Below are positions 17,967 through 58,830 of a stretch of 64,000 nt of DNA, piece by piece (position 1 is the stretch's first letter; each line of letters opens with the position of its first letter). The notes beneath the pieces are model-generated. The model saw nothing but the letters and a program-made list of their open reading frames with translations. It did no database searches and was not told where the DNA came from. This DNA comes from Bacilli bacterium (GTDB lineage Bacteria > Bacillota_I > Bacilli_A > RF39 > UBA660). The DNA lies in NCBI GenBank assembly GCA_041655535.1, contig JBBAFH010000003.1, forward strand, positions 72,910-136,909. Direction: 5' to 3'. Position numbers and translations under genes: made by a program.

Positions 17967-18007
17967 TAAAGGCACATAGCTAATTTTAATGTAAAGGAGT
18001 TGAAAAC

Positions 18008-18796: not shown

Positions 18797-18949
18797 AAAT
18801 AAATTGTAAATTCAAAAAGAGAATTAAAACAGTATAATTTTAAAATGTCCAACTTTTGGGGTGCATATCAATTTGATACTGTTTTTTTTGTCGATTTATT
18901 AATGTGGTAGATAAAGTTATTACCTAATAGTATTTTATAGGTGATAATA

Positions 18950-21559
<2,610 letters not shown>

Positions 21560-28917: not shown

Positions 28918-29709
28918 CTAATCATTTTTGACTAGTCTTTTCTCAATATAGTAGACAATATAGTACATAATGGCTGAAACAAGCGAAAGGATAATTACAC
29001 CAGTTATTACTAAGTCTAAATTAAATACTTGAGAACCATACATTATTAAATACCCAATTCCTTTTTTCGATACTAAAAATTCTCCCATTATAATTCCGAT
29101 CAAAGACATACTAACATTTATTTTCAAAGCGCTGATAATGTTATTAAAACTACTTGGTAGAACAAGTTTGAAAAACGTTTGCCCTTTATTCGCACCAAGA
29201 GACTTCATTAATTTTACTTTTACTGGATCGGTTTCATTGAAACCTTGCAACACATTAATAATTGTAACAATTACTGATATAAGTAAAGCCATTACAATAA
29301 TTGAACCTGTTTTGGCCCCAATCCATATAATGATAATTGGTCCGAGTGCTACTTTTGGTAAACTATTTAATATTATAAGATAAGGTTCTAAAATTTTAGA
29401 AATAAATTTATTCCACCATAATGCTGCCGCAATAATTATTCCAATAAGGGTTCCAAGAGTAAAACTAACCACTGTTTCATAAACTGTTGTAAAAATATGT
29501 TGATATAAATCATTTGTTTGATGTAGTGTTATAAGCGTTTCAATAACTTTAGAAGGACTTGAAGAAACAAAAGTGTTAATGATTTTAAAATCAGCAAGTA
29601 ATTGCCAAATTCCAAAAAAAAGTATGGATAAAAGTATTTGAATAAACAGAATAATAATTTTTTCTTGTTTGATTTTTTTTAAGTATTTAATATGCTCTTT
29701 ACTATACAT
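28918..29709 (-). CDS. ABC transporter permease, NitT/TauT (SsuC/TauC-like) family
   Basis: 6 TM segments and a binding-protein-dependent transport EAA-like region. The ATG at 29709 overlaps the stop of the upstream ATPase C-fragment in the form ATGTATAG. Confidence 0.8.
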   Translation of the reverse strand: MYSKEHIKYLKKIKQEKIIILFIQILLSILFFGIWQLLADFKIINTFVSSSPSKVIETLITLHQTNDLYQHIFTTVYETVVSFTLGTLIGIIIAAALWWNKFISKILEPYLIILNSLPKVALGPIIIIWIGAKTGSIIVMALLISVIVTIINVLQGFNETDPVKVKLMKSLGANKGQTFFKLVLPSSFNNIISALKINVSMSLIGIIMGEFLVSKKGIGYLIMYGSQVFNLDLVITGVIILSLVSAIMYYIVYYIEKRLVKND

Positions 29710-29881
29710 GAAAATCAATTTCTTTCCATATTAAATCGTAGTAATACGCAAATTCTTTGGCTTTTCTGTTCTCGATAGGTGATGATTTATCTGTTAATTC
29801 TATATTATAAATACTTTTAATTGTTCCAGGCCTCTTTGTTAAAACAATAATTCGGTCTGCCATGCTTATGGCTTCACTCAT
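29702..29881 (-). pseudogene. C-terminal fragment of the NitT/TauT ABC ATPase gene split by the insertion
   Basis: MSEAISMADRIIVLTKRPGTIKSIYNIELTD...EIDFHV continues the H-loop region (VTHDIS|EAI...) of the ATPase whose N-terminal part is at 41858..42445. The ATG is created at the junction. Confidence 0.7.
29867..29881. repeat. left junction repeat (attL-like) TATGGCTTCACTCAT
   Basis: 13/15 identical to the right-end repeat. Contains the shared core CTTCACT (AGTGAAG on the gene strand). Confidence 0.55.
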
Positions 29882-30027
29882 AGGTACAATTAGTATGATA
29901 ATAAATTAACTTGACACATAAGCTTAATTAGGTGATGTTATGATAAAGTTAACAAAAGAACAACAGGTTAAAATTATTGCTTTTCTATTAAGGACTTCAA
30001 TTTCTAGGATGATTCAAAAGGATAATT

Positions 30028-31503
30028 GTGATAAAGTTGATTAATAATTTCAAAGTGGGTATTTATGTTAGAGTATCGACTGAAGATCAAAAAGAATTTG
30101 GTTATTCTATTCCACAACAAATAGACCTATTATCAAAACTAGCTAACAAAAACAATTGGTATATATATAAAATATATAATGATGCTGGGATAAGTGGAAA
30201 AAATACAGACCGTCCAAAGCTTAAAGAACTATTAGATGATATTAAAAATCAAAAAATAAATAAGGTTTTAATTACTAAGCTTGACAGATTATCAAGAAAT
30301 GTTGTTGATACGGCTACATTGTTAAATGTTTTTAATAGTTTTAATTGTGAGTTAATAGATAGTACAGGAAGAAAAATAGAATCAGATAATCCTAGTGATT
30401 GGTTATTTACTATCATTCAAAGTGCTTTTGGACAATACGAAAGAAAGGCAATTATCAATCGTATTAAAGATGGTTTTGCGGGCAAAGCGAAGATGGGGAA
30501 AACACTATGTAGTTCAACGCCACCATATGGATATAATCGTGAAAAAGGGAGTAATGAATTAATTGAAGACGAAGAGGAATCAACAATTGTAAAACGAATT
30601 TATAATATGTACCTTGATGGAAATACATTTGCAGATATTGCAAAAATACTTAATGCTTCAAAAATATTAACTAAAAAATCAAAAACTGGGAATAAAGTTA
30701 TTAAGTGGACTTCAAAAACAGTAAAGCTTATCTTGTCTAACTCAACTTATATAGGTAAAATTAGATATCATTTAAACAGGGATGATTACCAAGAATATAA
30801 TGGAACTCATATTCCTTTAATTGATATTGCAACATATAAAAAAGTTCAAGAAAAACATAAAAAAACAAGTTTAATATTTCGGACTAATAAACCCAAAGAG
30901 GATGTTTATTTTTGTGGAACCGTTGTGTGTGGGTGTTGCAATACGCTTTTAACAACACAAAGAACTAAAAGAAACAACAAAACATATTATGGCTATAGAT
31001 GTCGTAAACGTGAGTTAGGAACATGTAAAGGAACAAGTATAAGTCATAAAAAAGTTGAAAAGGCCTTTTTTAAATATTTAGAATCTATAAAACAATTTGA
31101 TATGATTGATAGTTTTGATGTTTCTTTTAATAATAATGATAATTTAGAAATTAGTGATTTAACAAAAAATATTAGCAAGTGTAAATCCAAAAAAAAAGAA
31201 ATAATGCAACTATTTATGAACGATAGTATTTCTAATGAGCAAATGAAGTTTATGATAAAAGAAATTACATCAAAAGATAAAATAATGAGTGAAAGGTTAA
31301 AAAAAATAAAAAATATACAAAAAACAAACCAAAACAATTTTGGAGGTATTTCTATTAATATAAGGAAACATTTTGAATTGTTAACTAATTTTGAACGACA
31401 TGAATTTTTAACACAGTTTATTGAATATATTGTCATAAAAAATGATGAAAAGAATAAAATAAATGGTTGCCCAGTGACGTTGAAAATAAAGTTTTATGAT
31501 TGA
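30028..31503 (+). CDS. large serine recombinase (resolvase/invertase catalytic domain + recombinase domain + zinc ribbon + coiled coil)
   Basis: N-terminal VGIYVRVSTEDQ (Ser nucleophile), KLDRLSRN. C-terminal Cys cluster CGTVVCGCCNTLLTTQRTKRNNKTYYGYRCRKRELGTCKG. Lys/Glu-rich coiled-coil tail. The exact start is ambiguous (GTG 30028, TTG 30037 or GTG 30055). Confidence 0.8.
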   Translation: MIKLINNFKVGIYVRVSTEDQKEFGYSIPQQIDLLSKLANKNNWYIYKIYNDAGISGKNTDRPKLKELLDDIKNQKINKVLITKLDRLSRNVVDTATLLNVFNSFNCELIDSTGRKIESDNPSDWLFTIIQSAFGQYERKAIINRIKDGFAGKAKMGKTLCSSTPPYGYNREKGSNELIEDEEESTIVKRIYNMYLDGNTFADIAKILNASKILTKKSKTGNKVIKWTSKTVKLILSNSTYIGKIRYHLNRDDYQEYNGTHIPLIDIATYKKVQEKHKKTSLIFRTNKPKEDVYFCGTVVCGCCNTLLTTQRTKRNNKTYYGYRCRKRELGTCKGTSISHKKVEKAFFKYLESIKQFDMIDSFDVSFNNNDNLEISDLTKNISKCKSKKKEIMQLFMNDSISNEQMKFMIKEITSKDKIMSERLKKIKNIQKTNQNNFGGISINIRKHFELLTNFERHEFLTQFIEYIVIKNDEKNKINGCPVTLKIKFYD

Positions 31504-31610
31504 TAAAAGCCTTTATGAGTCAATGTTATTAAGTTTTAATTTGATGGATTATGTGATATACTATATAAGTAGTAAGATAAATAAACAAACATAGGTGGTG
31601 GTGATTAAAG

Positions 31611-34600
31611 ATGATAAGCGGTAATGAATTTAATAGGATAAGAAAACATTATAATAAATTAATTAAAATGATTAATAATCATTTTTTTGTAGGTATTGTT
31701 AATGAGTGGATAATTGATAATTATTATTTATTAGTTGAACAAAAAGATTCTATCAAAAAGTTTACTAAAGATAAAAAAGCATATAGTTATACTAGTAAAT
31801 ATTTAAATATGTATGATGTTTTTAAAACTATTTTGGAAAAGTATAATTATAAAATAGATGAAAACATTATTATAAAAGAAGTGATTGATTATCAGAAAAC
31901 GACTGGTTATAATTTAAAATATAAAGAACTATCTATTATACCTTTAGTTATCAAAGTTTTGTTGTTAAGAGAAGTATCGATAATTTGTGAAGAAGAATCA
32001 TCAAAATTAAATGATAAAAAAGAAGTAAAAAATATTATTAACAAATTAAAGAAAATGGTTTTAAATAACGAGGAAATAGATTTAGCAAAGTATATAAATT
32101 TAAATAAAATGTCTAGTTATGGTGTTGTTTACTTTAATGAGCAATTTAAAGAGTTGGGAGAATATTCTAATGTAGTTTTCAAACAATTTAATAGTTTGTT
32201 AGAAAACAACAATAAAGTAATGATTGATATTATAAACAAGGAACATTTAAAGAGTACCGAGTCTAACATAATTATTAATAATATATTTTTAAGTTTTAAA
32301 GAAACTAACATTTTTGTTATGGAAAATATTTACGAAAAAGTTAATGATGTCGAGAAGTTACTTCAAGAAGATAAATTATATTCTAAAATGACTCTTGAAA
32401 CAAAAACTTTAATTCGTCAACATTTACTTAAACGCGCAAGACAAGACAAAGTTACTGCCGATACTTTAGTAAAAGATATTTTAGATGATTATAATAATAT
32501 TAGTGATGGACTTTTAAAAAAGAAGGATTATGGTTTTCTGAAGGTTATATTTTATCTAGTAATTGTATTTGCAATAACCGCTATTTTAAGCTATTATTTA
32601 TCAGTTTTTTTAACCAGTTATAGGTTATTAGGTTTTTTAGCACTTCTGATTCCAATTAGCGAAATAGTAAATATTGTTGTTCAAAATATGTTTTTAAGAC
32701 TATTTAGAACAAAACCATTGGCAAAACTAGATTTTTCAAAAGGAATACCATCTAATCATAAAACGATGGTTGTTATTCCAACTATTGTTAAAACTGAAGA
32801 AAAAATTAAACAAGTTTTTACTAGCTTAGAAAAGTATTATTTAATCAATAAAACAAGTAATTTATATTTCACTTTATTAAGTGATGCTTTTGAAAATAAT
32901 GAAGAAAATCACCAAAATGATTCTACTATTATTTCTTCTGGTGTGGCTGAAGCCGAAAGATTAAACAAAATATATGGTAAAAATATTTTTCATTTTGTCT
33001 ATCGCCGTCGTATATATAATAAAGGTGAAGGGACATGGCTAGGTTTTGAACGGAAAAGAGGGGCATTGCTTCATTTTAATGACTTGCTATTAGGTAATAT
33101 GAATGAAGAAGAACAAAAAAAATATTTTAAAGTTCATACTTTCCATAATTTTCATCATAAGATTAAATATGTAATTACTTTAGACGTAGATACTGAATTG
33201 GTTTTAAATAGTGCTTTAAAACTAGCTGGAACCATGGCACATCCTTTAAATAGACCCATTTTAAACGAATCAAAGACCAAGGTTATTGCTGGATACGGTA
33301 TATTACAACCTAGAATTAGTTTAGAAGTTGAAGCTAGCAATAAATCATTGTTTTCACAAATATATGCAGGAATTGGGGGCTTTGATCCATACAGTAATCT
33401 TTACCCTAACTTTTATCAAGATGTTTTTAAAGAAGGAACTTTTTATGGAAAAGGAATATATGACTTAAAGGTTTATCAACAAGTCTTAAAAAAACGTTTC
33501 CCAAACAATTTGATATTAAGTCATGATTTAGTTGAAGGAAATTATCTTCGTGCCGGGAATGTTACTGATATTGATTTAATTGATGGTTTTCCATCTAAAT
33601 TTTTAGTAGATGCTTCTAGACGCTCAAGATGGGCGAGAGGAGATATGCAAGTAATTAGTTGGATTGGAAATAAAGTTAGAAATGAATCTGGAATCAAAGA
33701 AAAAAATCCAATTAGTTTATTAGGTAAGTGGAAAATCATTGATAACATCAGACGCGGATTGATTAATGTATTTTTATTAATAATCCTTTTTCTAGCACTT
33801 AATAGTAATATTGTGAATCCCAACTGGTGGTTATTGTTTGTTATTTTAATATATATTTTACCAATCATTATTCAAGTTATCGAAAATTTTGTGATTAGTC
33901 GTTCTAGTTTTAGTTCCTTGAAATATTATCGCATATTAGTATTTGGTTATAGAGCACTTATTCTAAGAGCGATAACTGAACTATCAATAATTCCTTACAA
34001 TGCTTACTTATATTTAAACTCTTTTGTTCGTTCAATATATCGAATGACTATTAGTAAGAAGCATTTACTTAATTGGGTTACAGCTGATGACGCTGCTAAA
34101 TTAGTTAAAACTAATTTAGGTAATACAATTAAACAATTTTGGATCAACACTTTTTTAGCAATCATTTTAATTGTTTGGGCTTTATATTCTAAAGAACATC
34201 AATTATTAAAACTTGTTCTATCATTTATTTTTATGCTAGGTCCTGTTATTACCTATTTAATTAGTAAAGATTTAGCACACGATAAAAATAAAATTGAAAA
34301 AGATGGTATTGAAACATTAAATAATTTAGCTAAGAGTACTTGGAGTTACTTTAGTGACAATTTAACTGAAGAAAACAATTATTTAATTCCTGATAATTAT
34401 CAAGAAAATAGAGATATAAAACCAGATATTAAAACGTCACCAACTAACATTGGACTTTCGTTAGTATCGGTTATTTCAGCATGCGAATTAAAATTAATAA
34501 ATACTGATGAAGCACTTCATTTGCTCGAAAAAATAATTACATCTATTAAAAAATTAGATAAGTGGCATGGTCATCTATATAATTGGTATGATATTAAAAC

Positions 34601-37600
34601 TTTAAAAGTTATGTATCCTCATTTTATTTCGAGTGTTGATAGCGGCAACTTTGTTGCTTCTTTAATGGTGGCCAAAGGATTTGTTGAAAAATATAATCGA
34701 CTAGAATTACTGAAAATGATTGAAAGATTAATAAATAAAACAGAATTTCAGTATTTATATACAGACACTGATGTATTTAGTGTTGGATATCATGTTGACC
34801 AAGGTCGATTAGAACCATTTAATTATAATAAATTTATGAGCGAAAGCCGCATTTTAAGTTATTTAGCAATCGCTAAAGGTGACGTTCCTAGTAAGCATTG
34901 GTTTGGTCTTGATAAAACGTTAATAGCTTATAAAAATAAAAAAGGTTTATCATCATGGTCTGGTACTTTCTTTGAATATTATATGCCACTTCTATTTATG
35001 CCAAGTTATGCTAATACGATAATTGATGAGGCTTATCATTTTGCATACTATGTTCAAAGTGATTATATGAAAAAGTATAACAAAAATTATCCGTGGGGAA
35101 TTTCAGAATCCGCTTATAATGATCTAGATGATGCTCAAAACTATAAATATAAAGCATTTGGTATTCCACAGTTAAGGCTTCGGGAGGAAGCAAGTGAAAG
35201 AGTTGTTATATCTCCATATAGTTCCCTTCTAGCCTTACCTCTATTTCCAAAAGAAGTTATTAAAAATATTGAAAAATTTAAACCACTTAATATGTTTGGT
35301 AAATATGGATTATATGAATCATATGATTGTTTAGATGAATCACCAGTTGTATCATATTACGCCCATCATCAAGCAATGATTTTAGGAAGTCTTACAAACT
35401 TTTTAACAGATGGTGTTATTCAATCATATTTTTACAAAGATATTCGTAATCAAGCTGTTGATATGTTAATAAAAGAAAAGGTTCAATTAAGACCACACAT
35501 TAATTATGAGACAATGAGGTATAAGAAATATACATATGAGAAAGAATCTTTTGTTAATGATATTAGAGTTTATAATCAAATATCAAAACTACCTGAGTTG
35601 TCGGTTTTATCAAATTCAAAGTATAGTGTTATTATTAATGATCGAGGGAATGGATATAGTAAATATTATCAAATTAGATTAAATAGATATCGTAAGGTTA
35701 CTGAAAGGGATTATGGACAATTTTTATATATTAAAGATTTACAAACTAAAAAGGTTTGGTCAAACACATATGCCCCAATTAATGTAAAACCGAAAAAATA
35801 TGAAATAGTATATGCTTTAGATAATATAAAATTTGTTAGAGCAGATAAAGATGTTATTACTACTACTGAAATAGTGGTGACAAAATCACACAATGCTGAA
35901 ATAAGAAGAATCACTTTTAAAAATAATGGAAACAAAGATAAAGAGTTGGAATTAACAACTTATACAGAACCTATTTTAGGTCTTAATTCTGATGATATTG
36001 GTCATCCAGTATTTAACAATATGTTTGTCTATAGTGAATACGACAAAAAAACCAATTCTATTATTATGAAAAGGAAATTAAGAAATTCTGATACAAATTA
36101 TTACATGATAAGCCGATTATTTATAGAAGATCCAATTGGTTCCTTTGAGTATGAAACAAATCGTGATAATTTTATCGGTAGAGGTCGTAATACTAATAAT
36201 CCAAAATCAATTCATGAAAAACTTCGTAACTATGTTGGAACTACACTTGATCCAATCATTAGTTTAAGAAATAAAATTTTAGTACCTAAAAATAGTGAAA
36301 AAACAGTTTATTTAATCACTGGTTTTGGAAGATCACGAGAACATGTTTTAAACATTGTTAGAACCTATTGTAATAAACAAGTTATCAATGAAAAAGGGTT
36401 TGAAACGGCTATTATTATGAGTAATGCAAGCAATAAAATGGTTAATATGAGTAGCGATGACCGTCGTTTATATAATACAATGCTTAATTATCTATTACAG
36501 ACAAATTATATTGTTGTAAGCGACGAAATATTTGATAATTTAACTAAAAACACGTTAAATCAAACAAATTTATGGGGCTTTGGAATTTCTGGTGACAGAC
36601 CAATAATATTATTAGACTTAAAAGATTTAAGTGATTTGAGTTTGGTTAAAGAATTATTGCATGCTTTTGAATATTACAAAAGCAAAGCAATTTTCATTGA
36701 TTTGGTTATAATTAATAGTGAAAACGAACAATACGCTAAAGTTATAGCAAAAGAAATAGAAAACGAAAAATATCATATGTATGCTATTAATAACTTCTTC
36801 AATACGCCTGGTTCAATTTTTGTTTTAGATAGAAACAAAATTAGTGAAGAGGATTATATTTTATTAAAAACGGTTGCTAGACTAAAAATTGATAGTAATC
36901 TTCATAATTCACTGCAATACTATATTAATGAACTTCAAAAATTAAACACAGTGAAAACTAAGCATAATGAAAATGAAGTTCCAAGTTTACCGATTAAGTA
37001 TGACAAAAACAAAATAAAATTCTTTAATGAATTTGGTGGTTTTATTAATAATGGTAAAGAATATTTAATAGTTGACCCAAATACTCCTTCAGCTTGGAGT
37101 AATGTCATTTCTAATAAAAACTTTGGAACAGTTATTACTAATAATAACTGTGGGTTCACTTATGCCGTAAACAGTAGAGAGTACAAATTAACGTCTTGGA
37201 CTAATGATGCTTTAGTTAATGATTATTCAGAAGGGTTTAAAATTAATGATATGAAAATCAATTTCAGTCATGTTAAATTTGGATTCGGTTATAGTGAGTA
37301 TATAGGAAACTTTAAACGAGTCGATCTTAATTTAATTCAATTTGTAGCAAAGGAAGATAACGTTAAATTTTATAAGATGAAACTAAAAAACAATTCTGCT
37401 CGTAAACAAAGAATTATTTTGAAGTTTTGGATAAACCCTAATCTTGGGTTTACTGAAGAAAAAACAGGACGTTATTTACTAAGTGAATTTAATGAAAAGA
37501 ATAATTATTTAAGTATCAGAAATGTTTATAGTCAAAAGTTTAATCATTTATATGCATATATGTCTAGTACTGAAAAAATAAACAACGCTATACTCAATAA

Positions 37601-39275
37601 TTTGTTAGTTAAAGAAATTGAAGTTGATTTCTATCTAGATGAAAAGGAAGAAAAAGAATTGGTCTTTACTTTAGGTAGTTCCACTAAAGATAATTTAGAT
37701 ACACTTGTCACGAAATATAATGATATTGCAAAAGTTAATGAAGAATTATCTAATATCAAAAATCATTGGGACGATATATTAACTACTGTTCAAATAAAAA
37801 CACCTGATGAAAGTTTTGATTATATATTAAATGGTTGGGCTTTATATCAAAGTATTGCTTCTAGATTACAAGCACGTGCAGGATTTTATCAAGTTGGTGG
37901 TGCATATGGATTTCGTGATCAATTACAAGATTCAATGAATGTATGCAGTATTGATCCTAGTATTACAAGGAATCAAATATTATTTAATGCTGCTCACCAA
38001 TTTAAAGAAGGAGATGTTCTTCATTGGTGGCACCCTAAATTAGATATTGGCTTGCGTTCATTATATAAGGATGATTATTTGTGGTTAATCTACGCAATTA
38101 GTGAGTATCTAAAAATTACTGAAGATTTTAGTATTTTAGATGAACAAGTACCATTTATTACAGGATTCGCACTTGAACCACACGAACATGAAAAGCTAAT
38201 TAATTACAAAGTTGGCGAAGAAACGTCTAGTATTTATGATCGTTGTATATTAATAATAAATAAAGCAATGAATGAACTAGGTCAAAATGGTTTACCCCTT
38301 ATGGGTGGTGGTGACTGGAACGATGGGATGAATAAGATAGGTATTGAAGGAAAAGGAACCAGTGTTTGGCTAGGATTTTTCTTGTACCAATTAATTAATG
38401 AATTCATGGCATTTGTTGATAAATATGATGCTAATATTGATTTAAGCATTTATAATGATTTTAACAAAGAACTAAAAGAATCTTTAAGAAATGTTGCGTG
38501 GGATGGTAAGTATTATTTAAGAGCTTTCTTTGATAATGGTCAACCAGTAGGATCAAATACTAATGAAGAATGCACAATAGATTTATTATCACAAAGTTTC
38601 GCCATATTATCTGGTGTAGCCGATTCTAAACAAATTGATACAATGATTGAGTCAGTAGAAACTAAGTTAGTTGATAATGATTTAAAAATTATTAAACTTT
38701 TGACACCAGCATTCTCTAAAAACAAAAATAATCCAGGATATATTATGGATTATCCTAAAGGAATTAGAGAAAATGGTGGTCAATATACTCATGCTGTCGC
38801 TTGGTACATTCAAGCCCTACTAAAAATAGGAAAGAATGATTTAGCATTCGATCACTATCAAATGATGAATCCAATTAATCGCACTAAAACTAAGGAAGAT
38901 GCATTGAAATATAAAGTTGAACCATATGTTTTTGTAGCGGATATCTATAGTAACGAAAATTTTGCTGGTCAAGGTGGATGGAGTTGGTATACCGGAACTA
39001 GTGGTTGGTTTTACAATGTCGCCCTTACAGATATTATTGGATTTAATTTAAGAGGTGACAAATTATATGTCACTCCTAATGTTCCGATTAAATGGAATGA
39101 CTTTGAAATAACTTATCGTTATCAAGACACGGTTTATAAAATAAAAGTTATGCTAAAAGAACCTAAAGACGAGATTATAATTGATAATAAAGTTACCTAT
39201 TATAATTATATAGAGTTAATAAATGATAAGAAAATACACACAGTTTTAGTAAAGAAAGGAGAGCAAAATGATTAA
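31611..39275 (+). CDS. giant multidomain glucan synthase, cyclic beta-1,2-glucan synthase (Cgs/NdvB/ChvB)-like: N-terminal region + GT-A glycosyltransferase + TM segments + C-terminal GH94-type phosphorylase domain
   Basis: 2554 aa. GT-A signatures ITLDVDTE (DxD) and RRSRWARGD (QxxRW-like), with multiple TM helices on either side. C-terminal region carries GGAYGFRDQLQDSMN, GGGDWNDGMN and WSWYTGTSGW, typical of GH94 (cellobiose/chitobiose phosphorylase-like) catalytic domains. RBS GGTGGTGGTGA. Confidence 0.7.
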   Translation: MISGNEFNRIRKHYNKLIKMINNHFFVGIVNEWIIDNYYLLVEQKDSIKKFTKDKKAYSYTSKYLNMYDVFKTILEKYNYKIDENIIIKEVIDYQKTTGYNLKYKELSIIPLVIKVLLLREVSIICEEESSKLNDKKEVKNIINKLKKMVLNNEEIDLAKYINLNKMSSYGVVYFNEQFKELGEYSNVVFKQFNSLLENNNKVMIDIINKEHLKSTESNIIINNIFLSFKETNIFVMENIYEKVNDVEKLLQEDKLYSKMTLETKTLIRQHLLKRARQDKVTADTLVKDILDDYNNISDGLLKKKDYGFLKVIFYLVIVFAITAILSYYLSVFLTSYRLLGFLALLIPISEIVNIVVQNMFLRLFRTKPLAKLDFSKGIPSNHKTMVVIPTIVKTEEKIKQVFTSLEKYYLINKTSNLYFTLLSDAFENNEENHQNDSTIISSGVAEAERLNKIYGKNIFHFVYRRRIYNKGEGTWLGFERKRGALLHFNDLLLGNMNEEEQKKYFKVHTFHNFHHKIKYVITLDVDTELVLNSALKLAGTMAHPLNRPILNESKTKVIAGYGILQPRISLEVEASNKSLFSQIYAGIGGFDPYSNLYPNFYQDVFKEGTFYGKGIYDLKVYQQVLKKRFPNNLILSHDLVEGNYLRAGNVTDIDLIDGFPSKFLVDASRRSRWARGDMQVISWIGNKVRNESGIKEKNPISLLGKWKIIDNIRRGLINVFLLIILFLALNSNIVNPNWWLLFVILIYILPIIIQVIENFVISRSSFSSLKYYRILVFGYRALILRAITELSIIPYNAYLYLNSFVRSIYRMTISKKHLLNWVTADDAAKLVKTNLGNTIKQFWINTFLAIILIVWALYSKEHQLLKLVLSFIFMLGPVITYLISKDLAHDKNKIEKDGIETLNNLAKSTWSYFSDNLTEENNYLIPDNYQENRDIKPDIKTSPTNIGLSLVSVISACELKLINTDEALHLLEKIITSIKKLDKWHGHLYNWYDIKTLKVMYPHFISSVDSGNFVASLMVAKGFVEKYNRLELLKMIERLINKTEFQYLYTDTDVFSVGYHVDQGRLEPFNYNKFMSESRILSYLAIAKGDVPSKHWFGLDKTLIAYKNKKGLSSWSGTFFEYYMPLLFMPSYANTIIDEAYHFAYYVQSDYMKKYNKNYPWGISESAYNDLDDAQNYKYKAFGIPQLRLREEASERVVISPYSSLLALPLFPKEVIKNIEKFKPLNMFGKYGLYESYDCLDESPVVSYYAHHQAMILGSLTNFLTDGVIQSYFYKDIRNQAVDMLIKEKVQLRPHINYETMRYKKYTYEKESFVNDIRVYNQISKLPELSVLSNSKYSVIINDRGNGYSKYYQIRLNRYRKVTERDYGQFLYIKDLQTKKVWSNTYAPINVKPKKYEIVYALDNIKFVRADKDVITTTEIVVTKSHNAEIRRITFKNNGNKDKELELTTYTEPILGLNSDDIGHPVFNNMFVYSEYDKKTNSIIMKRKLRNSDTNYYMISRLFIEDPIGSFEYETNRDNFIGRGRNTNNPKSIHEKLRNYVGTTLDPIISLRNKILVPKNSEKTVYLITGFGRSREHVLNIVRTYCNKQVINEKGFETAIIMSNASNKMVNMSSDDRRLYNTMLNYLLQTNYIVVSDEIFDNLTKNTLNQTNLWGFGISGDRPIILLDLKDLSDLSLVKELLHAFEYYKSKAIFIDLVIINSENEQYAKVIAKEIENEKYHMYAINNFFNTPGSIFVLDRNKISEEDYILLKTVARLKIDSNLHNSLQYYINELQKLNTVKTKHNENEVPSLPIKYDKNKIKFFNEFGGFINNGKEYLIVDPNTPSAWSNVISNKNFGTVITNNNCGFTYAVNSREYKLTSWTNDALVNDYSEGFKINDMKINFSHVKFGFGYSEYIGNFKRVDLNLIQFVAKEDNVKFYKMKLKNNSARKQRIILKFWINPNLGFTEEKTGRYLLSEFNEKNNYLSIRNVYSQKFNHLYAYMSSTEKINNAILNNLLVKEIEVDFYLDEKEEKELVFTLGSSTKDNLDTLVTKYNDIAKVNEELSNIKNHWDDILTTVQIKTPDESFDYILNGWALYQSIASRLQARAGFYQVGGAYGFRDQLQDSMNVCSIDPSITRNQILFNAAHQFKEGDVLHWWHPKLDIGLRSLYKDDYLWLIYAISEYLKITEDFSILDEQVPFITGFALEPHEHEKLINYKVGEETSSIYDRCILIINKAMNELGQNGLPLMGGGDWNDGMNKIGIEGKGTSVWLGFFLYQLINEFMAFVDKYDANIDLSIYNDFNKELKESLRNVAWDGKYYLRAFFDNGQPVGSNTNEECTIDLLSQSFAILSGVADSKQIDTMIESVETKLVDNDLKIIKLLTPAFSKNKNNPGYIMDYPKGIRENGGQYTHAVAWYIQALLKIGKNDLAFDHYQMMNPINRTKTKEDALKYKVEPYVFVADIYSNENFAGQGGWSWYTGTSGWFYNVALTDIIGFNLRGDKLYVTPNVPIKWNDFEITYRYQDTVYKIKVMLKEPKDEIIIDNKVTYYNYIELINDKKIHTVLVKKGEQND

Positions 39276-40470
39276 ATTTGATTTTAACACTTATATGAAA
39301 TCATTTGATAGAGTTGGAAATTATCAGTCTAAAATAAATAAAATAATTAATTTATTAGAAACAGGAACATCGATGAATGATTGGTATGATATAGACAAAT
39401 GTATTACGCCAGGAGTTTTAGAAGATATTTTAGAAACAAGTAAATATATTCGTAATAATTGTGATGTTTTTATTGTTATTGGAGTGGGTGGATCATCATT
39501 AGGTGCAAAAGCTGTTGTTGATGCATTCAAACCTTATTTCAAAAAAAGCAATCCCGAAATAATCTTTTTGGGATCATCACTATCATCAGTTTATTTAAAA
39601 GAATTGTTAAAATATATTGAAGGTAAAGAGGTAATTATTAATGTGATTTCTAAATCCGGGACGACTTTTGAAACAAATCTATATTTTGAATATATCTACA
39701 AGGAACTTAATAAAAGATATGTTGAAGACGAGCTTAATAAAAGAATAATTATAACAACTGATGCAAAAGAAGGAAGTCTTAGACAATTAGTTAATCAAAA
39801 AAATTACAAATCTTTTGTTTTACCAAGTAATATTGGTGGGAGATATTCAGTTATGACAGTTGTTGGTCTTTTACCAATAGCGGTTTCAGGTATAGATATA
39901 AATGAAATGATTCTTGGTGCCAAAGCATTAGATAAACAGAAATCTTTTGATTATGCTGTCAGCAGGGATCTTTTATACAAATACGGAAAAAAAGTGGAAT
40001 CACTTACTATTTATGAACCAAAACTATTATCATTAGTTGAAAGTATCAAACAAGTACTTGCTGAAACCCAAGGAAAAGAAGGTAAAGCTATTTTGCCAAT
40101 TGCTTCGATTAATACTGGAGATCTGCACTCTTTGGGGCAGTTTTATCAAGAAGGCAGTCAAATATTATTTGAAACAGTTATTAACGTTGAATATAATAAC
40201 GATATCGTTATATCTAAATATAATAAAAAATTAGATGATATAAACAAAATAGTTGCTAGTCAAGTAGCGACTTCTCATATGAAAAATGATGTTTATAGTA
40301 ATTTTATATCACTTGATGCATTAACTCCTTTTAATATAGGTCAACTAATTTATTTCTTTGAAATAGCCGCAGCAGCAGGTGCATACCTACTTGAAGTGGA
40401 ACCATTTGGTCAACCTGGTGTAAGTGAATATAAAAAATTAGTTGCAAGGGAACTTGATAATAATGAGTAA
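39268..40470 (+). CDS. pgi: glucose-6-phosphate isomerase (short, Bacillus/archaeal-type PGI)
   Basis: 400 aa, ...VIGVGGSSLGAKAV..., ...ISKSGTTFET..., GGRYSVMTVVGLLP. Start overlaps the giant gene's stop by 8 nt. Confidence 0.8.
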   Translation: MIKFDFNTYMKSFDRVGNYQSKINKIINLLETGTSMNDWYDIDKCITPGVLEDILETSKYIRNNCDVFIVIGVGGSSLGAKAVVDAFKPYFKKSNPEIIFLGSSLSSVYLKELLKYIEGKEVIINVISKSGTTFETNLYFEYIYKELNKRYVEDELNKRIIITTDAKEGSLRQLVNQKNYKSFVLPSNIGGRYSVMTVVGLLPIAVSGIDINEMILGAKALDKQKSFDYAVSRDLLYKYGKKVESLTIYEPKLLSLVESIKQVLAETQGKEGKAILPIASINTGDLHSLGQFYQEGSQILFETVINVEYNNDIVISKYNKKLDDINKIVASQVATSHMKNDVYSNFISLDALTPFNIGQLIYFFEIAAAAGAYLLEVEPFGQPGVSEYKKLVARELDNNE

Positions 40471-41830
40471 AATAAATCCATTAATTTTTAGAGCTTATGA
40501 TATTAGAGGTATCTATCCGATTGATATTAACGAAGAAATGGCTTTTATAATAGGTTGCAGTTTTGGAACTTATATTACTAGTATTGGTAAAACAGAAGCT
40601 TTAGTTGGATACGATAACCGTTTATCTTCTCCTTCTTTAAGGGATTCGTTAATTAAAGGAATTACTAGTACCGGAATCAACGTTATCGATCTAGGGCTTA
40701 TTACAACACCGATGTTTTATTATGCTAGAACATATTTAAATGTTTGGTCTGGAATAATGATTACAGCAAGCCATAATCCAAGTGATCATAATGGATTTAA
40801 ATTATCTTTTACCGAAATTGGAAATGCTCTTGGAGAAGAAATTACCGATTTTTATAATTTTACGATCAAGGGAGAATTTATAGATGGAAATGGTACTATA
40901 AATCATTACAATATTAAAAACGACTATATAGAACTTATTAAAAATTCCCTTGATTTGGGAGGTAAAAAAATCAAAGTGGTTGTTGATTGTGGGAACGGAA
41001 CTACATCAGTTGTCATAAAAGATATTCTTGATTCATTACCAATTGTTTATGAGTTGATGTATGCAGAAAGCGATCCAACTTTTCCAAATCATCATCCTGA
41101 TCCATCAGTGCCAGAAAACTTAATTGATCTTCAAAAACGAGTAGTTGAGTTAAATTGCGATTTAGGACTTGCTCTAGATGCTGATGGAGACCGTATTGGA
41201 CTTGTCGATAATTTAGGCAATGTTATTGATAGTGATTTATATATGATTATAATGTATCGTTATTTAAGTAAAAATATGAAAAATAAGACGGCGCTTTATG
41301 ACGTAAAATGTTCAAAATCATTGATTAATGAAATAGATAAACTTGGTTTAAAACATATTATGAATCGTACTGGTAATTCATATGTATACAGAAGACTTCA
41401 TCAAGAAAATATTGAATTTGGTGGAGAATATTCTGGACATATCTTCTTTAAAGATAAATTTCCAGGATTTGATGATGGTATTTATGCTGGTCTTAGAATG
41501 GTTGAAGTATTGTCAACAACTGGTAAAATGATAAGTGAATTATCAGAAGGGATTAATAAATATTATTCGACTGATGAAATAAAAGTAACAGTTGCTGATG
41601 AAAAAAAATTCAAGGTAATAGAAAAGATAAAAGAAATATTGAAAAATAAAAAAATACCATTTAAAGATATTGATGGTGTAAGAGTTGAAACGAATGACTT
41701 TTGGGTGTTAGTAAGAGCTTCAAATACAACGCCTAACTTAACAGTTAGATTTGAGGCTAATAGTGAAAAGTTACTTGAAAAAATAAAAGATGAATATTTT
41801 GAACTAATTAATAAAGTAATAAAAGGATAA
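40463..41830 (+). CDS. phosphoglucomutase/phosphomannomutase (alpha-D-phosphohexomutase family)
   Basis: MSKINPLIFRAYDIRG..., active-site TASHNP, metal loop DADGDR, GEYSGH. The ATG at 40463 overlaps the pgi stop in the form ATGAGTAA. Confidence 0.8.
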   Translation: MSKINPLIFRAYDIRGIYPIDINEEMAFIIGCSFGTYITSIGKTEALVGYDNRLSSPSLRDSLIKGITSTGINVIDLGLITTPMFYYARTYLNVWSGIMITASHNPSDHNGFKLSFTEIGNALGEEITDFYNFTIKGEFIDGNGTINHYNIKNDYIELIKNSLDLGGKKIKVVVDCGNGTTSVVIKDILDSLPIVYELMYAESDPTFPNHHPDPSVPENLIDLQKRVVELNCDLGLALDADGDRIGLVDNLGNVIDSDLYMIIMYRYLSKNMKNKTALYDVKCSKSLINEIDKLGLKHIMNRTGNSYVYRRLHQENIEFGGEYSGHIFFKDKFPGFDDGIYAGLRMVEVLSTTGKMISELSEGINKYYSTDEIKVTVADEKKFKVIEKIKEILKNKKIPFKDIDGVRVETNDFWVLVRASNTTPNLTVRFEANSEKLLEKIKDEYFELINKVIKG

Positions 41831-41857
41831 TATAATTATCTTTTTTTTTATACTTAT

Positions 41858-42445
41858 TTAGTATATGCCTTCACTTATATCATGGGTGACCATTATGACA
41901 CTTTTTTTTTCTTTTTTGATAATTTTATAAACATCATCTGATACTGCTAACCTCGTTTGATAATCAAGTGCTGAAAAAGGTTCATCTAACAAAAGAATAT
42001 CTGGTTTCGTGGCCAGCGTTCTAATTAGAGCCGCTCTTTGTCGCATCCCCCCGGATAAACTACTAGGATAATTATCCACAAAATCACCGAGGCCATAAGT
42101 ATTTAGTAACTTTATTACGTAATCAGTATTTTCTTTTGTTAATTCATTTTTGATTTCTAAACCAATTAAACAGTTATTTAAAATTGTTCGCCAATTAAAC
42201 AAATTATCTTGTTGTAGCATGTACCCAATTGTAGAATTTTCATTAAAATTAACTGTTCCTTCTGATATTTTTTCTAAACCACATAAAATTGATAGAATAG
42301 TCGACTTTCCGCATCCACTTGGGCCAACAATGGCCACAAACTCCCCTTCATACAAATTAAAAGAAAAGTTATCAACAGCTAATATTTCACCTTGTTTAGT
42401 ATGATAAATTTTCTTTAAGTTTTCAATATTTAATATTTTATTCAT
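41858..42445 (-). pseudogene. N-terminal fragment (195 aa) of the NitT/TauT-type ABC transporter ATP-binding protein, truncated by the insertion
   Basis: Walker A GPSGCGKST, signature LSGGMRQR, Walker B LLLDEPFSALD, H-loop VTHDIS, then an abrupt ...EGIY stop at the element boundary. The remainder is found at 29702..29881. Confidence 0.75.
41864..41878. repeat. right junction repeat (attR-like) TATGCCTTCACTTAT
   Basis: Direct repeat of the 29867-29881 sequence. Lies immediately adjacent to the truncated ATPase N-fragment stop. Confidence 0.55.
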
Positions 42446-43436
42446 TATTATTTTCTACGGAAAAACTTACATCAACTAATTTGTTATATGGAGCTTTTTT
42501 ATTTAATTCTCCTGCAGATTCCATTATTGTTTGAACATGTTCAAAATCTTTTTTTTCAATTTTTGTGGTTTTATACCATGAATCAATACTCTTATATCTG
42601 TCTACCACTTTAGTAACATCATTAATTGATGTGTCTGGAAAATAATCAATTATGTTTTTAGCAATATCTTCTGATTTATTGTTATGAACATAATTTAACC
42701 CTTTTTGAATTGCTCTTGTAAAGCCTTCAATTAATTCTTTGTTGTCATCTATATAACTTTTTTTCGCACTATATGTTGTATACGGAACAACACCACCGAG
42801 TTCACCAACCGATGCAACAACATGACCATATCCTTGTTTTTCTATTTGAAGTGCTAAAGGTTCAAATAGAGTAACATAATCCCCATTACCACCAATAAAT
42901 GATCCTGCCATAGCAGCAAAAGCAATACTTGTATCGATGTTAACATCTTTTTTAGGATTAATGCCATTAGTCTTAAGTGCCCATTCGAATGTCATTTCTG
43001 GCATTCCACCTTTTCGACCACCTATAACATTCATTCCTCTCATGTCACTAAGTTTAAAATTATCAATTTTTTTTCTAGAAACTATGAAACTACCATCTCT
43101 TTTAGTTAAACCCGAAAAATTAATTAGATAATCTTCTTCACCTTCATTATAAATATAAATTGATGCTTCACTTCCACAAAACCCAATATTAACATCTCCA
43201 GATAAAACAGCAGCAGCTACTTTATCGGCACCAGGTACTAACATTAATTCGACATCTAATCCCTCATCTTCAAAATAACCTAAAGAATGTGCAATATATT
43301 GTGGGGCGTAAAAAATACTGTGAGTAACTTCTGCAACTTTTACTTTCGTTAAATCTTTATTTTTGTCTTTGAAAGCAAATAAGGTCCCTAATGCTATTAG
43401 TAAAACAATAAAAATCGATATAATAATTTTTTTCAA
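42438..43436 (-). CDS. ABC transporter substrate-binding protein, NMT1/THI5-like (NitT/TauT family)
   Basis: 332 aa, N-terminal signal/anchor. 8-nt overlap with the ATPase start, so it is the first gene of the SBP-ATPase-permease operon. Confidence 0.7.
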   Translation of the reverse strand: MKKIIISIFIVLLIALGTLFAFKDKNKDLTKVKVAEVTHSIFYAPQYIAHSLGYFEDEGLDVELMLVPGADKVAAAVLSGDVNIGFCGSEASIYIYNEGEEDYLINFSGLTKRDGSFIVSRKKIDNFKLSDMRGMNVIGGRKGGMPEMTFEWALKTNGINPKKDVNIDTSIAFAAMAGSFIGGNGDYVTLFEPLALQIEKQGYGHVVASVGELGGVVPYTTYSAKKSYIDDNKELIEGFTRAIQKGLNYVHNNKSEDIAKNIIDYFPDTSINDVTKVVDRYKSIDSWYKTTKIEKKDFEHVQTIMESAGELNKKAPYNKLVDVSFSVENNNE

Positions 43437-51166: not shown

Positions 51167-53506
51167 GTGAAAATGAATTTACCAGTAGTACTACTTAAAG
51201 GTATTGTCTTATTACCGAATAATGAAATTCGGTTAGAATTTGATAATACGGTAAGTAAAAGTGTTATAGATGTATCAGAATTATTTCATGACAATAATGT
51301 CCTAGTTGTAAGTCAAGAAAATTTATTGGAAGAATTTCCTAAAATAAGTGATTTACCACGAATCGGAGTTATTGCTAAAATAATTCATAAAATAGAGCTA
51401 CCAAATGGCAATGTTAGAGTTGTTATAAAAGGTAGTCGCCGTGGAAAAGTTCTTGAATATTTAAATTTAGAAAAGGGTTCAGATATTTTAGAAGCCATAG
51501 TTGTGGAACTTTTAGATACTGTAATTGATAAAAGTGAAGAATCAATTTTAACTAATAAACTTTATCGTGAAGTTGAAGAATATATCAAAGGTATTCCATA
51601 TATAAGTAATAATATTTTGGGTATTATCGAAAATGTGAATAGTTTATCTGAAATGACTGATGTATTGGCATCTTTCCTACCAACAAAGTTAGACAGAATT
51701 CAACAATATTTATATAGTAACGATGTTAAAAATCGTGCAAAAATGATTTTAACGGATATTGATGATGGCAAAAAAATATATGATATTGAGAAATCAATTG
51801 ATCAAAAAGTCAAACATGAAATAGATAATAATCAAAAAGAATATTTGTTAAGAGAAAAAATTAAGGCTATTAAAGAAGAACTTGGAGATATTTCATCTAA
51901 AGATGAAGAAATAGATAAGTTAAAAGAAAAAATTGAAACTTTAATAGCTCCAATACAAATAAAAGAAAGATTATCTAGTGAGATAAAAAGATACGAAAGC
52001 CTTTCACAAACTTCACCCGAGGCGAATATTGTAAGAAATTATATCGATTGGTTACTTAGTTTACCTTGGAGTGAAACGACTAAAGATAATGAAGACTTAA
52101 AAGATGTTCGTAAAAAACTGGATGCTTCACATTATGGTTTGGATAAGGTTAAAACACGTATTATTGAATATTTGGCGATTAAGCAAATGACTAATAGTTT
52201 AAAAAGCCCAATTATTTGTTTGGTTGGACCACCAGGTGTTGGTAAAACTAGTTTAGCATTTAGTATTGCTTCAGCTATCAACCGTAATTTTGTCAAAATG
52301 TCGGTTGGTGGGGTTCATGATGAAGCTGAAATAATTGGACATCGTCGAGCTTATATAGGTTCGAGTCCTGGTAGAATTATTCAGTCTCTTAAAAAAGCTA
52401 AAAGTATTAATCCTGTTTTCTTAATTGATGAAATAGATAAAATGACTAAAGACTTTCGTGGGGATCCTGCTAGTAGTTTGTTAGAGGTTTTAGATCCGGA
52501 ACAAAATCAGTTCTTTAGCGACAATTATATTGAAGAAGAATACGATTTATCAAATGTCATGTTTATTGCAACTGCAAATTACATTGAAGATATTCCTGAG
52601 GCTTTAAAAGATCGTTTAGAAATTGTTAATTTATCAGGATATACAGAATACGAGAAGTTAGATATTGCCAAACGACATTTAATTGGTAAAATATGTAAAA
52701 ATCATGGTATTGATTCTTCTAAAATATATTTTAGTGATGAAATATTGCTATATATAATTAGAGGATATACTAGAGAAGCTGGTGTTCGTGAATTAGAGCG
52801 TCAGTTGTCAAATATTATTAGGAAAATAGTTGCTGATATTGTTATTGCTAAAGTAGATTATGAAAAACATCGCATTACCATAAAACTAGCAAATAAACTT
52901 TTAGGTAAAGTAAAATACAATTTTTCTGAAATTAACAAATTATCAAAAGTTGGTGTAGTTAACGGATTAGCATATACAAGTTTTGGTGGTGACACATTAC
53001 CAATTGAAGTTAATTACTTTAAAGGAAGTGGTAATCTATTCCTTACAGGTTCACTTGGAGAAGTTATGAAGGAAAGTGCTCACATCGCACTTAGCTATAT
53101 CAAATCAAATTATAAGCAATTTGGAATTGATTATGAAAAATTAACCAAAAATGATATTCATATTCATGTTCCAGAAGGTGCAATTCCTAAAGATGGTCCA
53201 AGTGCGGGTATAACTTTAACTACCGCTTTAATCAGTGCTTTTACTAGTAAAAAAATTCCTGCCAATCTTGCCATGACCGGCGAAATCACTTTAAGAGGTA
53301 ATGTTTTACCAATTGGTGGTTTAAAGGAAAAGAGTATTGGTGCAAGTCGCAACGGAATTAAAAGAATTATTATTCCTTATGGTAACCTAAACGACTTGGA
53401 TGAAATACCTAAAGAAATTAAAAACAATATAGATTATATAGCAGTTAAAAACTACAAAGAAGTAATGCATATTATTGATGAGGAAAAAGTATTAAGTAAA
53501 GTATAA
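51167..53506 (+). CDS. lon: ATP-dependent Lon protease
   Basis: 779 aa. LON N-domain, Walker A GPPGVGKTS, and a proteolytic domain with a Ser-Lys dyad region PKDGPSAGIT. Confidence 0.9.
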   Translation: MKMNLPVVLLKGIVLLPNNEIRLEFDNTVSKSVIDVSELFHDNNVLVVSQENLLEEFPKISDLPRIGVIAKIIHKIELPNGNVRVVIKGSRRGKVLEYLNLEKGSDILEAIVVELLDTVIDKSEESILTNKLYREVEEYIKGIPYISNNILGIIENVNSLSEMTDVLASFLPTKLDRIQQYLYSNDVKNRAKMILTDIDDGKKIYDIEKSIDQKVKHEIDNNQKEYLLREKIKAIKEELGDISSKDEEIDKLKEKIETLIAPIQIKERLSSEIKRYESLSQTSPEANIVRNYIDWLLSLPWSETTKDNEDLKDVRKKLDASHYGLDKVKTRIIEYLAIKQMTNSLKSPIICLVGPPGVGKTSLAFSIASAINRNFVKMSVGGVHDEAEIIGHRRAYIGSSPGRIIQSLKKAKSINPVFLIDEIDKMTKDFRGDPASSLLEVLDPEQNQFFSDNYIEEEYDLSNVMFIATANYIEDIPEALKDRLEIVNLSGYTEYEKLDIAKRHLIGKICKNHGIDSSKIYFSDEILLYIIRGYTREAGVRELERQLSNIIRKIVADIVIAKVDYEKHRITIKLANKLLGKVKYNFSEINKLSKVGVVNGLAYTSFGGDTLPIEVNYFKGSGNLFLTGSLGEVMKESAHIALSYIKSNYKQFGIDYEKLTKNDIHIHVPEGAIPKDGPSAGITLTTALISAFTSKKIPANLAMTGEITLRGNVLPIGGLKEKSIGASRNGIKRIIIPYGNLNDLDEIPKEIKNNIDYIAVKNYKEVMHIIDEEKVLSKV

Positions 53507-53523: not shown

Positions 53524-53569
53524 ATATTTAAGAAATGTTTTCATATAATTAATTGAAACAGAGAGGGTG

Positions 53570-57813: not shown

Positions 57814-57894
57814 TCAAAAAGCATTGATTAAATAGTTTGGTTATTATATAATAAAAAAAGAAATCAAGGAACTTGAGGAGTAAATATAATGAAT

Positions 57895-58829: not shown

Positions 58830-58830
58830 A

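Follow-up and report, generated by a model that had tools for sequence, protein, structure and literature searches.

Interest in cyclic beta-1,2-glucans has centred on Gram-negative bacteria, where they act in symbiosis and virulence, and we know of no established role for them in bacteria without a periplasm. Large serine recombinases serve as genome-engineering tools. Here we describe a locus that combines the two, in a 64,000-nucleotide stretch of a Bacilli bacterium genome (contig JBBAFH010000003.1 of assembly GCA_041655535.1; this whole stretch is referred to as the window). A gene for a giant protein of the cyclic glucan synthase (Cgs) type, coupled to a glucose-6-phosphate isomerase gene (pgi) and a phosphohexomutase gene (pgm), lies together with a large serine recombinase gene on a 12.0-kb element inside an ATP-binding cassette (ABC) transporter gene.

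For the Cgs of Agrobacterium tumefaciens (PDB entries 8RF0/8RF9), the UDP-binding aspartates, the catalytic base and the R-W motif of the GT84 domain, the primer tyrosine and the GH94 residues have been numbered, and the GH94 activity was dispensable for function (PMC10901819). In the Thermoanaerobacter italicus enzyme (TiCGS), the cyclization domain by itself makes cyclic glucans, with E1442 as the nucleophile, E1356 as the acid/base and E1400 and H1536/H1537 as supporting residues (PMC10834661). We found nothing beyond this domain study in the literature on cyclic glucans in Firmicutes. With respect to the element, the nearest described analogue is gin of Bacillus cereus, a non-phage element with a large serine recombinase, GirC, a small directionality factor, GirX (6.5 kDa), and a 9-bp core (PMC5595907). 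The open-access text that was searched contained no account of a cgs operon that is mobile, and none of elements targeting the ATPase gene described below.

An element inside an ABC transporter ATPase gene

The element comprises positions 29879-41868 of the window plus one copy of a short core, 12.0 kb in total, and is inserted in the ATPase gene of a NitT/TauT-type ABC transporter just after the H-loop codons. It contains a small open reading frame (ORF), the recombinase gene, cgs, pgi and pgm, and nothing else. In a sister species (L088), the ATPase gene is intact and codes for 248 amino acids (aa); it has a single core site and lacks the 12 kb. This genome shares the gene order of the window on both sides, with nusA-infB-rbfA-cmpB-permease on one and the substrate-binding protein gene, followed further on by Fic-uvrD-galU-ligA-lon, on the other. 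The flanks of the window are 90-92% nucleotide-identical to L088, where they abut with a 12-bp overlap at the core, and the two ATPase fragments of the window, once joined at the core, give an in-frame 248-aa ATPase that is 98% identical to the intact protein (P0121). The insertion is precise. The same intact ATPase gene occurs in a second sample (L089), and a second carrier (L002; Cgs 91% identical) shares both the insertion and the core with the window. The original prediction had placed the glucan genes on a mobile, recombinase-bearing island; the empty site confirms the mobile island, whereas its insertion inside an ABC ATPase gene had not been recognised. The features of the locus are the following (window coordinates):

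28918-29709, minus strand: permease of the interrupted ABC operon, a host gene (Pfam BPD_transp_1) with conserved synteny in L088 and in two related species (L003, L087)
29702-29881, minus strand: 3' fragment of the ABC ATPase gene, a 59-aa ORF with 56 host-derived residues that reads MSEAISMADRIIVL...
29872-29878: attL core, CTTCACT on the plus strand and AGTGAAG in the direction of the ATPase gene; left element boundary
29879-29939, plus strand: element-side arm next to attL (cataggtacaattagtatgataat...), conserved in related elements
29940-30044, plus strand: small ORF of 34 aa (MIKLTKEQQVKIIAFLLRTSISRM...), overlapping the recombinase start
30028-31503, plus strand: large serine recombinase, 491 aa, catalytic motif YVRVSTEDQ
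31611-39275, plus strand: giant cgs ORF of the ORF map, 2554 aa, ATG start
39268-40470, plus strand: pgi, short Firmicute-type glucose-6-phosphate isomerase, 400 aa
40463-41830, plus strand: pgm, PMM/PGM-type alpha-D-phosphohexomutase, 455 aa
41826-41849, plus strand: putative operon terminator at the pgm end, a weak AT-rich hairpin followed by U9 (z = -2.6)
41858-42445, minus strand: 5' fragment of the ABC ATPase gene, 195 aa, Walker A through H-loop
41869-41875: attR core CTTCACT, the right element boundary
42438-43436, minus strand: substrate-binding protein (NMT1/SsuA family) of the interrupted ABC operon, a host gene with conserved synteny in L088
48160-49017, plus strand: galU-like UTP-glucose-1-phosphate uridylyltransferase (TIGR01099, full length, 313.7 bits with a cut-off of 326.8)
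Reconstructed attB junction: ...GCCATGCTTATGGCTTCACTTATATCATGGGTGACC...
Reconstructed attP junction: ...TTATTTAGTATATGCCTTCACTCATAGGTACAATTAG...

In the ATPase 3' fragment, the stretch from 29871 to 29702 consists of host codons (AISMADR...DFHV*); the ATG of this ORF comes from the element end, and its stop overlaps the permease start. Despite 10% nucleotide divergence, the fragment is 100% amino acid-identical to its counterparts in L002 and L088. The 5' fragment ends ...VTHDISEGIY*, with three element-encoded codons before the stop. Composition does not set the element apart from its host: GC content is 27.4% compared to 28-29% (29% for the window), GC content at third codon positions (GC3) is 0.155-0.177 compared to 0.147-0.206, and the skew is likewise non-separating. 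A comparison of island and host composition had been suggested as a check, but foreign origin was not detected this way.

The recombinase contains the Pfam domains Resolvase (PF00239), Recombinase (PF07508) and Zn_ribbon_recom (PF13408), its S17 is invariant in 15 homologs, and it matches the PHROG 95 integrase family with E=4e-109. Matches to XisF and to the Ccr recombinases (CcrA/B/C) stayed below threshold (CcrB 146 bits, cut-off 900), and no close relative was found in the IMG/VR viral contigs. The arm at 29879-29939, aligned by eye among the window, L002, L091 and L093, is presumed to be a recombinase-binding half-site; next comes AGGTGA, the Shine-Dalgarno sequence of the small ORF. Such an ORF, 33-63 aa long, lies directly 5' of the recombinase gene in 6/6 elements examined (window, L002, L091, L093, L096, L119), shares the motif K[LF][TS]KEQQ..I..F..KTS.PRM, and is preceded by a good ribosome-binding site in the four closest elements. 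It has no Pfam match and no detectable similarity to known directionality factors; the L093 version weakly matches phrog_30936, whose function is not known. We regard the product of this ORF as a candidate accessory or directionality factor.

Related recombinases target one and the same ABC ATPase gene, with differing cargo; their identities to the recombinase of the window are 64%, 59% and 39-42%, and 36% in one case. Homologs with 64% (L091/L092) and 59% identity (L093/L094) lie between the permease gene with the ATPase 3' fragment and cgs-pgi-pgm, and break the gene at the same codon. A more distant pair (L095/L096; recombinase 40%) occupies the same gene and codon with GDSL-lipase, MBOAT, AlgX-like and deacetylase genes as cargo. 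According to a scan of metagenomes with the recombinase profile, every recombinase locus of >=39% identity (L098-L104, L154) adjoins fragments of the ATPase gene, as does one locus at 36% (L127), and the break falls at THDxxE|A, in the H-loop codons, wherever both fragments are seen. Most homologs at 31-38% identity show no association with the ATPase gene, and many of those contigs are short. Element sizes in the family range from 2.8 kb to about 11 kb (L095/L096, L098-L104, L119, L127, L154). Further cargo includes ClpP-like genes with a small invertase gene, and an FtsK/TraG-like gene with a tyrosine integrase gene; in L103, the ATPase gene is in three pieces and a second, unrelated serine recombinase is nested inside.

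The synthase and its operon

Judged by its sequence, the giant protein is a Cgs/ChvB/NdvB-type synthase and shows every Cgs feature that can be tested at this level. The original prediction had proposed this architecture, and the alignment agrees with it. In a phmmer search of all PDB sequences, the A. tumefaciens Cgs (8RF0/8RF9) was matched with 1306 bits, in four colinear stretches (query 27-278, 316-1020, 1040-1983 and 2006-2506) that correspond to 8RF0 residues 86-2796. The cyclase region also matches 8WY1, the GH189 cyclization domain of T. italicus, with 332-341 bits. Pfam places the Glyco_hydro_94 catalytic domain at 2052-2477 (361 bits), the GH94 supersandwich in two stretches (the best one at 1328-1571), and its 'Glycoamylase' model, which corresponds to the GH189 cyclization domain, at 1076-1274. 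The resulting layout consists of an N-terminal domain (1-300), transmembrane segments 1-2 (308-357), GT84 (about 370-710), transmembrane segments 3-6 (717-884), GH189 (about 894-1300), and the GH94 supersandwich and catalytic part (1328-2506). The six membrane segments, two of which precede and four of which follow the GT84 module, are hydropathy peaks (308-326, 339-357, 717-735, 739-757, 840-858 and 866-884) from a simple Kyte-Doolittle scan. The modules named in the prediction, GT and GH94, were thus found, but the N-terminal domain and the GH189 domain in the middle of the protein (8WY1) had been overlooked. All motifs quoted in the prediction are present in the translation: ITLDVDTE (522-529), RRSRWARGD (670-678), GAYGFRDQLQDSMN (2097-2110), GGGDWNDGMN (2232-2241) and WSWYTGTSGW (2457-2466).

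The residues with assigned roles in the characterised enzymes are conserved as well. D425, D525, D527, D639 and R673-W674 of the GT84 module correspond to D527, D624, D626, D739 and R773 of A. tumefaciens, and Y594 (in GGFDPYS) aligns with the primer tyrosine Y694 (in GIDPYV). In the cyclase, S1007, D1010 and E1078 correspond to S1101, D1104 and E1300 of A. tumefaciens, and E1078, E1122, E1166, H1252 and H1253 to E1356, E1400, E1442, H1536 and H1537 of T. italicus. The GH94 residues D2103 (GFRDQ) and D2238 (GGDWND) are the counterparts of D2393 and D2528. An alignment of 12 homologs, the most distant at 50% identity, shows no variation at any of these key residues, and the ratio of non-synonymous to synonymous substitutions (dN/dS) of cgs between the window and L002 is 0.065. 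A plain disaccharide phosphorylase fused to unrelated domains was considered and rejected: the match to cellobiose and chitobiose phosphorylases is confined to residues 2004-2550, with 175-229 bits vs the 1306 bits of Cgs.

Among 8000 database candidates scored, 748 proteins were Cgs homologs at E < 1e-20. The species genomes contain at least 598 Cgs-type loci in many phyla, and hundreds of homologs of about 2550 aa occur in metagenome-assembled genomes (MAGs) labelled 'Bacilli bacterium'. The view that such synthases are sporadic in Firmicutes hence holds for the literature but not for the genome data. Two observations on individual homologs may be added. In L092 (11602-19493), cgs was called as two ORFs (2073 + 523 aa), which would indicate a frameshifted pseudogene or an assembly error. 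Homologs with 37-48% identity are located on contigs binned as Muribaculaceae/Bacteroidales (L006, L008, L011, L024, L031); two of these five have pgi directly 3', and mis-binning or inter-phylum transfer could explain them.

The ORF map and the junction sequences bore out the predicted coupling of the 2554-aa ORF to its neighbours: cgs and pgi overlap by 8 nt (39268-39275, ATGATTAA), and so do pgi and pgm (40463-40470, ATGAGTAA). The mutase starts at ATG 40463 and not at TTG 40442 as in the mechanical ORF list, and the start codons of all three genes agree with the gene calls of an identical public contig (the public copies are labelled 'MAG: Bacilli bacterium'). An assembly artefact is excluded, because the arrangement recurs in independent assemblies (Logan SRR8449813 and NCBI MAGs); the exact recombinase is also found on an NCBI contig of 179 kb. 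The isomerase matches the Pfam PGI model (76.5, cut-off 22) and the Staphylococcus aureus PGI 3FF1 (271 bits), and contains the motifs GGRYS, ETQGK, HSLGQ and QPGVSEYK. The mutase has the four domains PGM_PMM_I-IV, matches the Pseudomonas aeruginosa PMM/PGM with 332 bits and has the phosphoserine, metal and sugar loops (TASHNP, DADGDR and GEYSGH, respectively). It is of the PMM/PGM type by fold; all NCBIfam equivalogs stayed below their own cut-offs, and its preferred substrate may be of the glucose, mannose or glucosamine type.

With respect to expression signals, no G+C-rich terminator was found at the operon end by a consensus scan, which missed the hairpin at 41826-41849 because of its few G-C pairs. 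A sigma-70 promoter scan of 29.6-42.6 kb was uninformative, since its 93 sites equal the 92.9 expected from shuffled sequence. No riboswitch or other RNA was found near the operon with Rfam, whose sole match was a T-box before valS.

Linkage of cgs, pgi and pgm is kept in L002, L003, L085, L087, L091 and L093, and the stops and starts overlap in all examined relatives above about 64% Cgs identity. Seven loci at about 40-50% Cgs identity retain the cgs-pgi adjacency without a recombinase, and in more distant loci, proteobacterial ones included, cgs stands alone. The link between recombinase and cgs does not reach the clade at 50% identity, where L097 has cgs only. Thus, the supply route from fructose-6-phosphate via glucose-6-phosphate to glucose-1-phosphate is a conserved partner of the synthase in this lineage, because the cgs-pgi(-pgm) linkage has been kept. 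The galU gene, by comparison, is not a member of the cassette as had been proposed: it lies in a conserved uvrD-galU-ligA context that is the same in the empty-site genome L088, and is therefore a backbone gene outside the element. The chromosomal GalU is nevertheless the likely supplier of UDP-glucose.

Origin of the element and alternative explanations

We consider it probable that the locus is a site-specific integrative element with cgs-pgi-pgm as cargo, whose Cgs makes a cyclic glucan. PGI and PGM would convert fructose-6-phosphate to glucose-6-phosphate and on to glucose-1-phosphate, from which GalU, encoded outside the element, would make UDP-glucose. The GT84 module would then glucosylate its own Tyr594 and extend the beta-1,2 chain at the cytoplasmic face of the six-helix membrane anchor. 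Phosphorolytic trimming of the chain by GH94 would free glucose-1-phosphate for re-use by PGM or GalU, and GH189, with E1166 as nucleophile and E1078 as acid/base, would release the cyclic glucan by transglycosylation. The recombinase would excise the element precisely and restore the reading frame of the ATPase.

Several observations weigh against this explanation. No Pfam or NCBIfam model matches the N-terminal 1000 residues of the giant protein, NCBIfam yields zero matches for the whole protein, and Pfam finds no glycosyltransferase model in the N-terminal 930 residues. Thus, of the two modules expected from domain searches, GH94 was recovered by Pfam, but the GT84 part went unrecognised and its assignment rests on the PDB alignment, because neither database offers a GT model for it. 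The cyclase domain is about 130-160 residues short compared to both characterised enzymes and has no segment equivalent to 8WY1 chain residues 145-307, and it is from homology that we infer a cyclic beta-1,2-glucan as the product, both as regards ring or linear form and as regards ring size. The pathway had been described as periplasmic or secreted, but no Cgt/NdvA/ChvA-type exporter was recognised among the annotated ORFs of the window, with the ribosomal-protein stretch and several small ORFs outside the scan. The PGI protein scores 368 bits with NCBIfam PRK14097 (cut-off 443) and, at 400 aa, falls about 45 aa short of the relatives with solved structures (about 445 aa). As for mobility, a degenerate pattern for the attP circle junction had no match in the JGI metagenome contigs, and the empty site in L088 could mean 'never invaded' and not 'excised'.

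The history of the operon can be traced in related species. L003 (Cgs 73%) and L087 (64%) lack the recombinase; both have an intact ABC operon with cgs-pgi-pgm directly next to it and feoAB in front of the three genes (L003 10001-22862; L087 10001-22753), about 1 kb from the position of the element in the window. In L085, the three genes stand together elsewhere, also without a recombinase. The cassette lies on a mobile island in the window, as predicted, but related species also have it as a fixed operon of the chromosome. The Cgs tree unites the recombinase-linked copies in a single clade; L003 is the sister of this clade, and L087 branches off further out. This topology favours a scenario in which an element captured the resident operon about 1 kb from its target site and then moved between hosts; the operon would accordingly be older than its mobility, because fixed, recombinase-free copies exist in related species. 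Movement between hosts is suggested by identities that run in opposite ways: the permease of the window is 81-83% identical to those of L003/L087 and 67-71% to those of L091/L093, whereas its Cgs is 73%/64% identical to the former and 80%/76% to the latter. The host phylogeny in this comparison is that of one 263-aa gene.

A comparison of the window with L002 gives 18 synonymous and 0 non-synonymous changes in the ATPase 3' fragment, and dN/dS is 0.036 for the 5' fragment and 0.14 for the recombinase. The low values between these two carriers indicate that the split ATPase gene and the recombinase are both under selection. The C-terminal fragment is intact in all aligned split genomes (window, L002, L091, L093, L096). 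Selection on a split gene would fit regulated or frequent excision, a split protein that still works, or insertions that were recent and independent. The first of these options leads to an alternative explanation, namely that the element is a programmed gene-intervening element like gin, skin or SPbeta, which leaves the chromosome in one particular cell type or under one particular condition, such as in the mother cell during sporulation. Its excision would rebuild the ABC ATPase and remove the glucan operon, and the germ line would keep the insertion. Besides the strong purifying selection on both intact fragments, the conservation of the recombinase and of the adjacent small ORF, which resemble GirC and the 6.5-kDa GirX of gin (PMC5595907), would fit this explanation. 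For the element, the synonymous divergence (dS) of the window from L002 amounts to 0.74-0.84, which is close to or a little higher than the value for the flanks (0.39-0.68) and compatible with long co-residence, and the lineage has spore genes. However, the target is an ordinary solute-uptake ATPase of the NitT/TauT family with no known role in sporulation, and related elements carry mobile-element cargo (ClpP-like, invertase, FtsK/TraG-like and tyrosine integrase genes, and nested elements). Moreover, the conflicting identities of Cgs and host gene point to horizontal spread, the sister species is wholly without the element, no sporulation promoter was recognised in the operon region, where the sigma-70 scan was no better than shuffled sequence, and recent independent insertions would explain the purifying selection equally well. 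A programmed element is thus unlikely in our view.

A broader form of this idea would be that the element and its relatives are domesticated switches, which the recombinase and the GirX-like 34-aa ORF excise by program, for example in the mother cell or upon a nutritional signal. We consider this quite unlikely. If it were true, excision would rebuild an ABC importer and discard or silence an envelope-polysaccharide operon, and uncultured Bacilli would have a whole family of such switches, all placed at the H-loop codons of a single transporter gene and each with different cell-surface cargo.

A further alternative concerns the product and not the element. The giant protein might make a linear beta-1,2-glucan, a ring of different size or linkage, or a cytoplasmic store that feeds glycolysis via GH94, PGM and PGI. 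The gap in the cyclase domain, the lack of a recognised exporter gene nearby and a monoderm host without a periplasm are in line with this possibility. The tight coupling to pgi and pgm, which is not seen in the retrieved proteobacterial loci, would suit the breakdown of glucose-1-phosphate too. Yet all five GH189 residues with a demonstrated or proposed role in cyclization (E1078, E1122, E1166, H1252, H1253) are present together with S1007 and D1010, the T. italicus domain makes cyclic glucans on its own (PMC10834661), and the GH94 activity is dispensable for function in A. tumefaciens (PMC10901819). Such a product is improbable, and a cyclic glucan is the outcome that we would expect.

Finally, it is very unlikely that the island is a fixed relic with an inactive recombinase and an inactivated transporter, and thus an ordinary chromosomal glucan operon: the missing circle junction, the host-like GC and GC3 values and the fixed, recombinase-free operons of L003, L087 and L085 would agree with this, but all carriers have a conserved, full-length recombinase and small ORF, no decay is seen in the ATPase fragments, the sister species has a precise empty site, and the phylogeny of the element is incongruent with that of the host gene.

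Host context and comparison with described systems

The host is plausibly a spore-former. Downstream of lon (51167-53506), two adjacent genes (53567-55196) code for SpoVID-like and YsxE/CotS-like proteins, both below curated cut-offs, and L087 has a GerA operon (GerA, GerAC and spore-permease genes) beside the same ABC operon. No core sporulation regulator was found within the 64-kb window. The arrangement of the gene pair at 53567-55196 recalls the spoVID-ysxE neighbourhood of B. subtilis.

Some other features of the window lie apart from the element. The T-box leader (57858-58065; 121.5 bits, above the gathering score) is located 5' of an HDIG-domain gene (58098-58829) and valS (58822-61392). 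A 367-aa protein (56710-57813) strongly matches the ALK/LTK glycine-rich domain family (E=5e-48), which is unusual for bacteria. At 16000-19000, the GC content dips to 22-24%; this region contains two ORFs (17103-17966 and 18008-18796) without a significant family match, flanked by the ribosomal-protein region on one side and a gene for a P-type ATPase on the other.

The locus extends two known systems and does not overturn current knowledge of either. With the A. tumefaciens Cgs, the giant protein shares colinearity over nearly the full length, the domain order, six transmembrane helices, the D/D/D/R-W residues of GT84, the primer tyrosine, the cyclase residues and the catalytic aspartate of GH94. 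Its length is smaller by about 265 aa, owing to a reduced N-terminal domain and to about 150 aa missing from the cyclase domain, and it is only about 28-34% identical to the proteins of the retrieved proteobacterial loci. In contrast to the proteobacterial system, the cgs of the window is linked to pgi and pgm, is borne on a recombinase element, and has no cgt/ndvA/chvA exporter gene recognised among the annotated ORFs around it; its host is a low-GC, probably spore-forming monoderm. The GH189 founding member, TiCGS (8WY1), is a Bacillota enzyme and closer to the cyclase of the giant protein (341 bits) than is the Agrobacterium enzyme (249 bits), and its catalytic E1356 and E1442 as well as E1400 and H1536/H1537 are matched. 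TiCGS has been studied as an isolated domain only, and neither linkage to pgi and pgm nor a mobile context was reported for it in the publications consulted. To this picture, the locus adds a compact, Gram-positive-type synthase with all catalytic residues, which represents a family of hundreds in 'Bacilli bacterium' MAGs. It further adds a conserved operon, cgs-pgi-pgm, in which the synthase is linked to the supply of hexose phosphates.

The element resembles gin in that both are small non-phage elements inside a coding sequence whose precise rejoining restores the frame, with a large serine recombinase of about 57 kDa, a tiny adjacent ORF, a short core (7 bp in the window, 9 bp in gin) and a host lineage that has spore genes. 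Unlike gin, it targets an ABC ATPase gene instead of a sporulation gene, its cargo is a 10-kb polysaccharide operon, and no known directionality factor is recognisably similar to its small ORF. The signs of horizontal spread and the varied cargo of its family also set it apart from gin, and no sign of developmental timing was seen. With SCCmec, it shares a cargo island bounded by a single large serine recombinase, weak below-cut-off similarity to Ccr and site-specific insertion in a conserved host gene. Transposons of the Tn4451/Tn5397 type are presumably similar in their large serine recombinase and phage-gene-free cargo. The element differs from all of these in its target site and in carrying a glucan-synthesis operon instead of resistance genes. 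It provides evidence that such an operon may move between hosts on a minimal serine-recombinase element, and it supplies a natural attB/attL/attR set for a large serine recombinase, together with a 34-aa product that is a candidate for its accessory factor.

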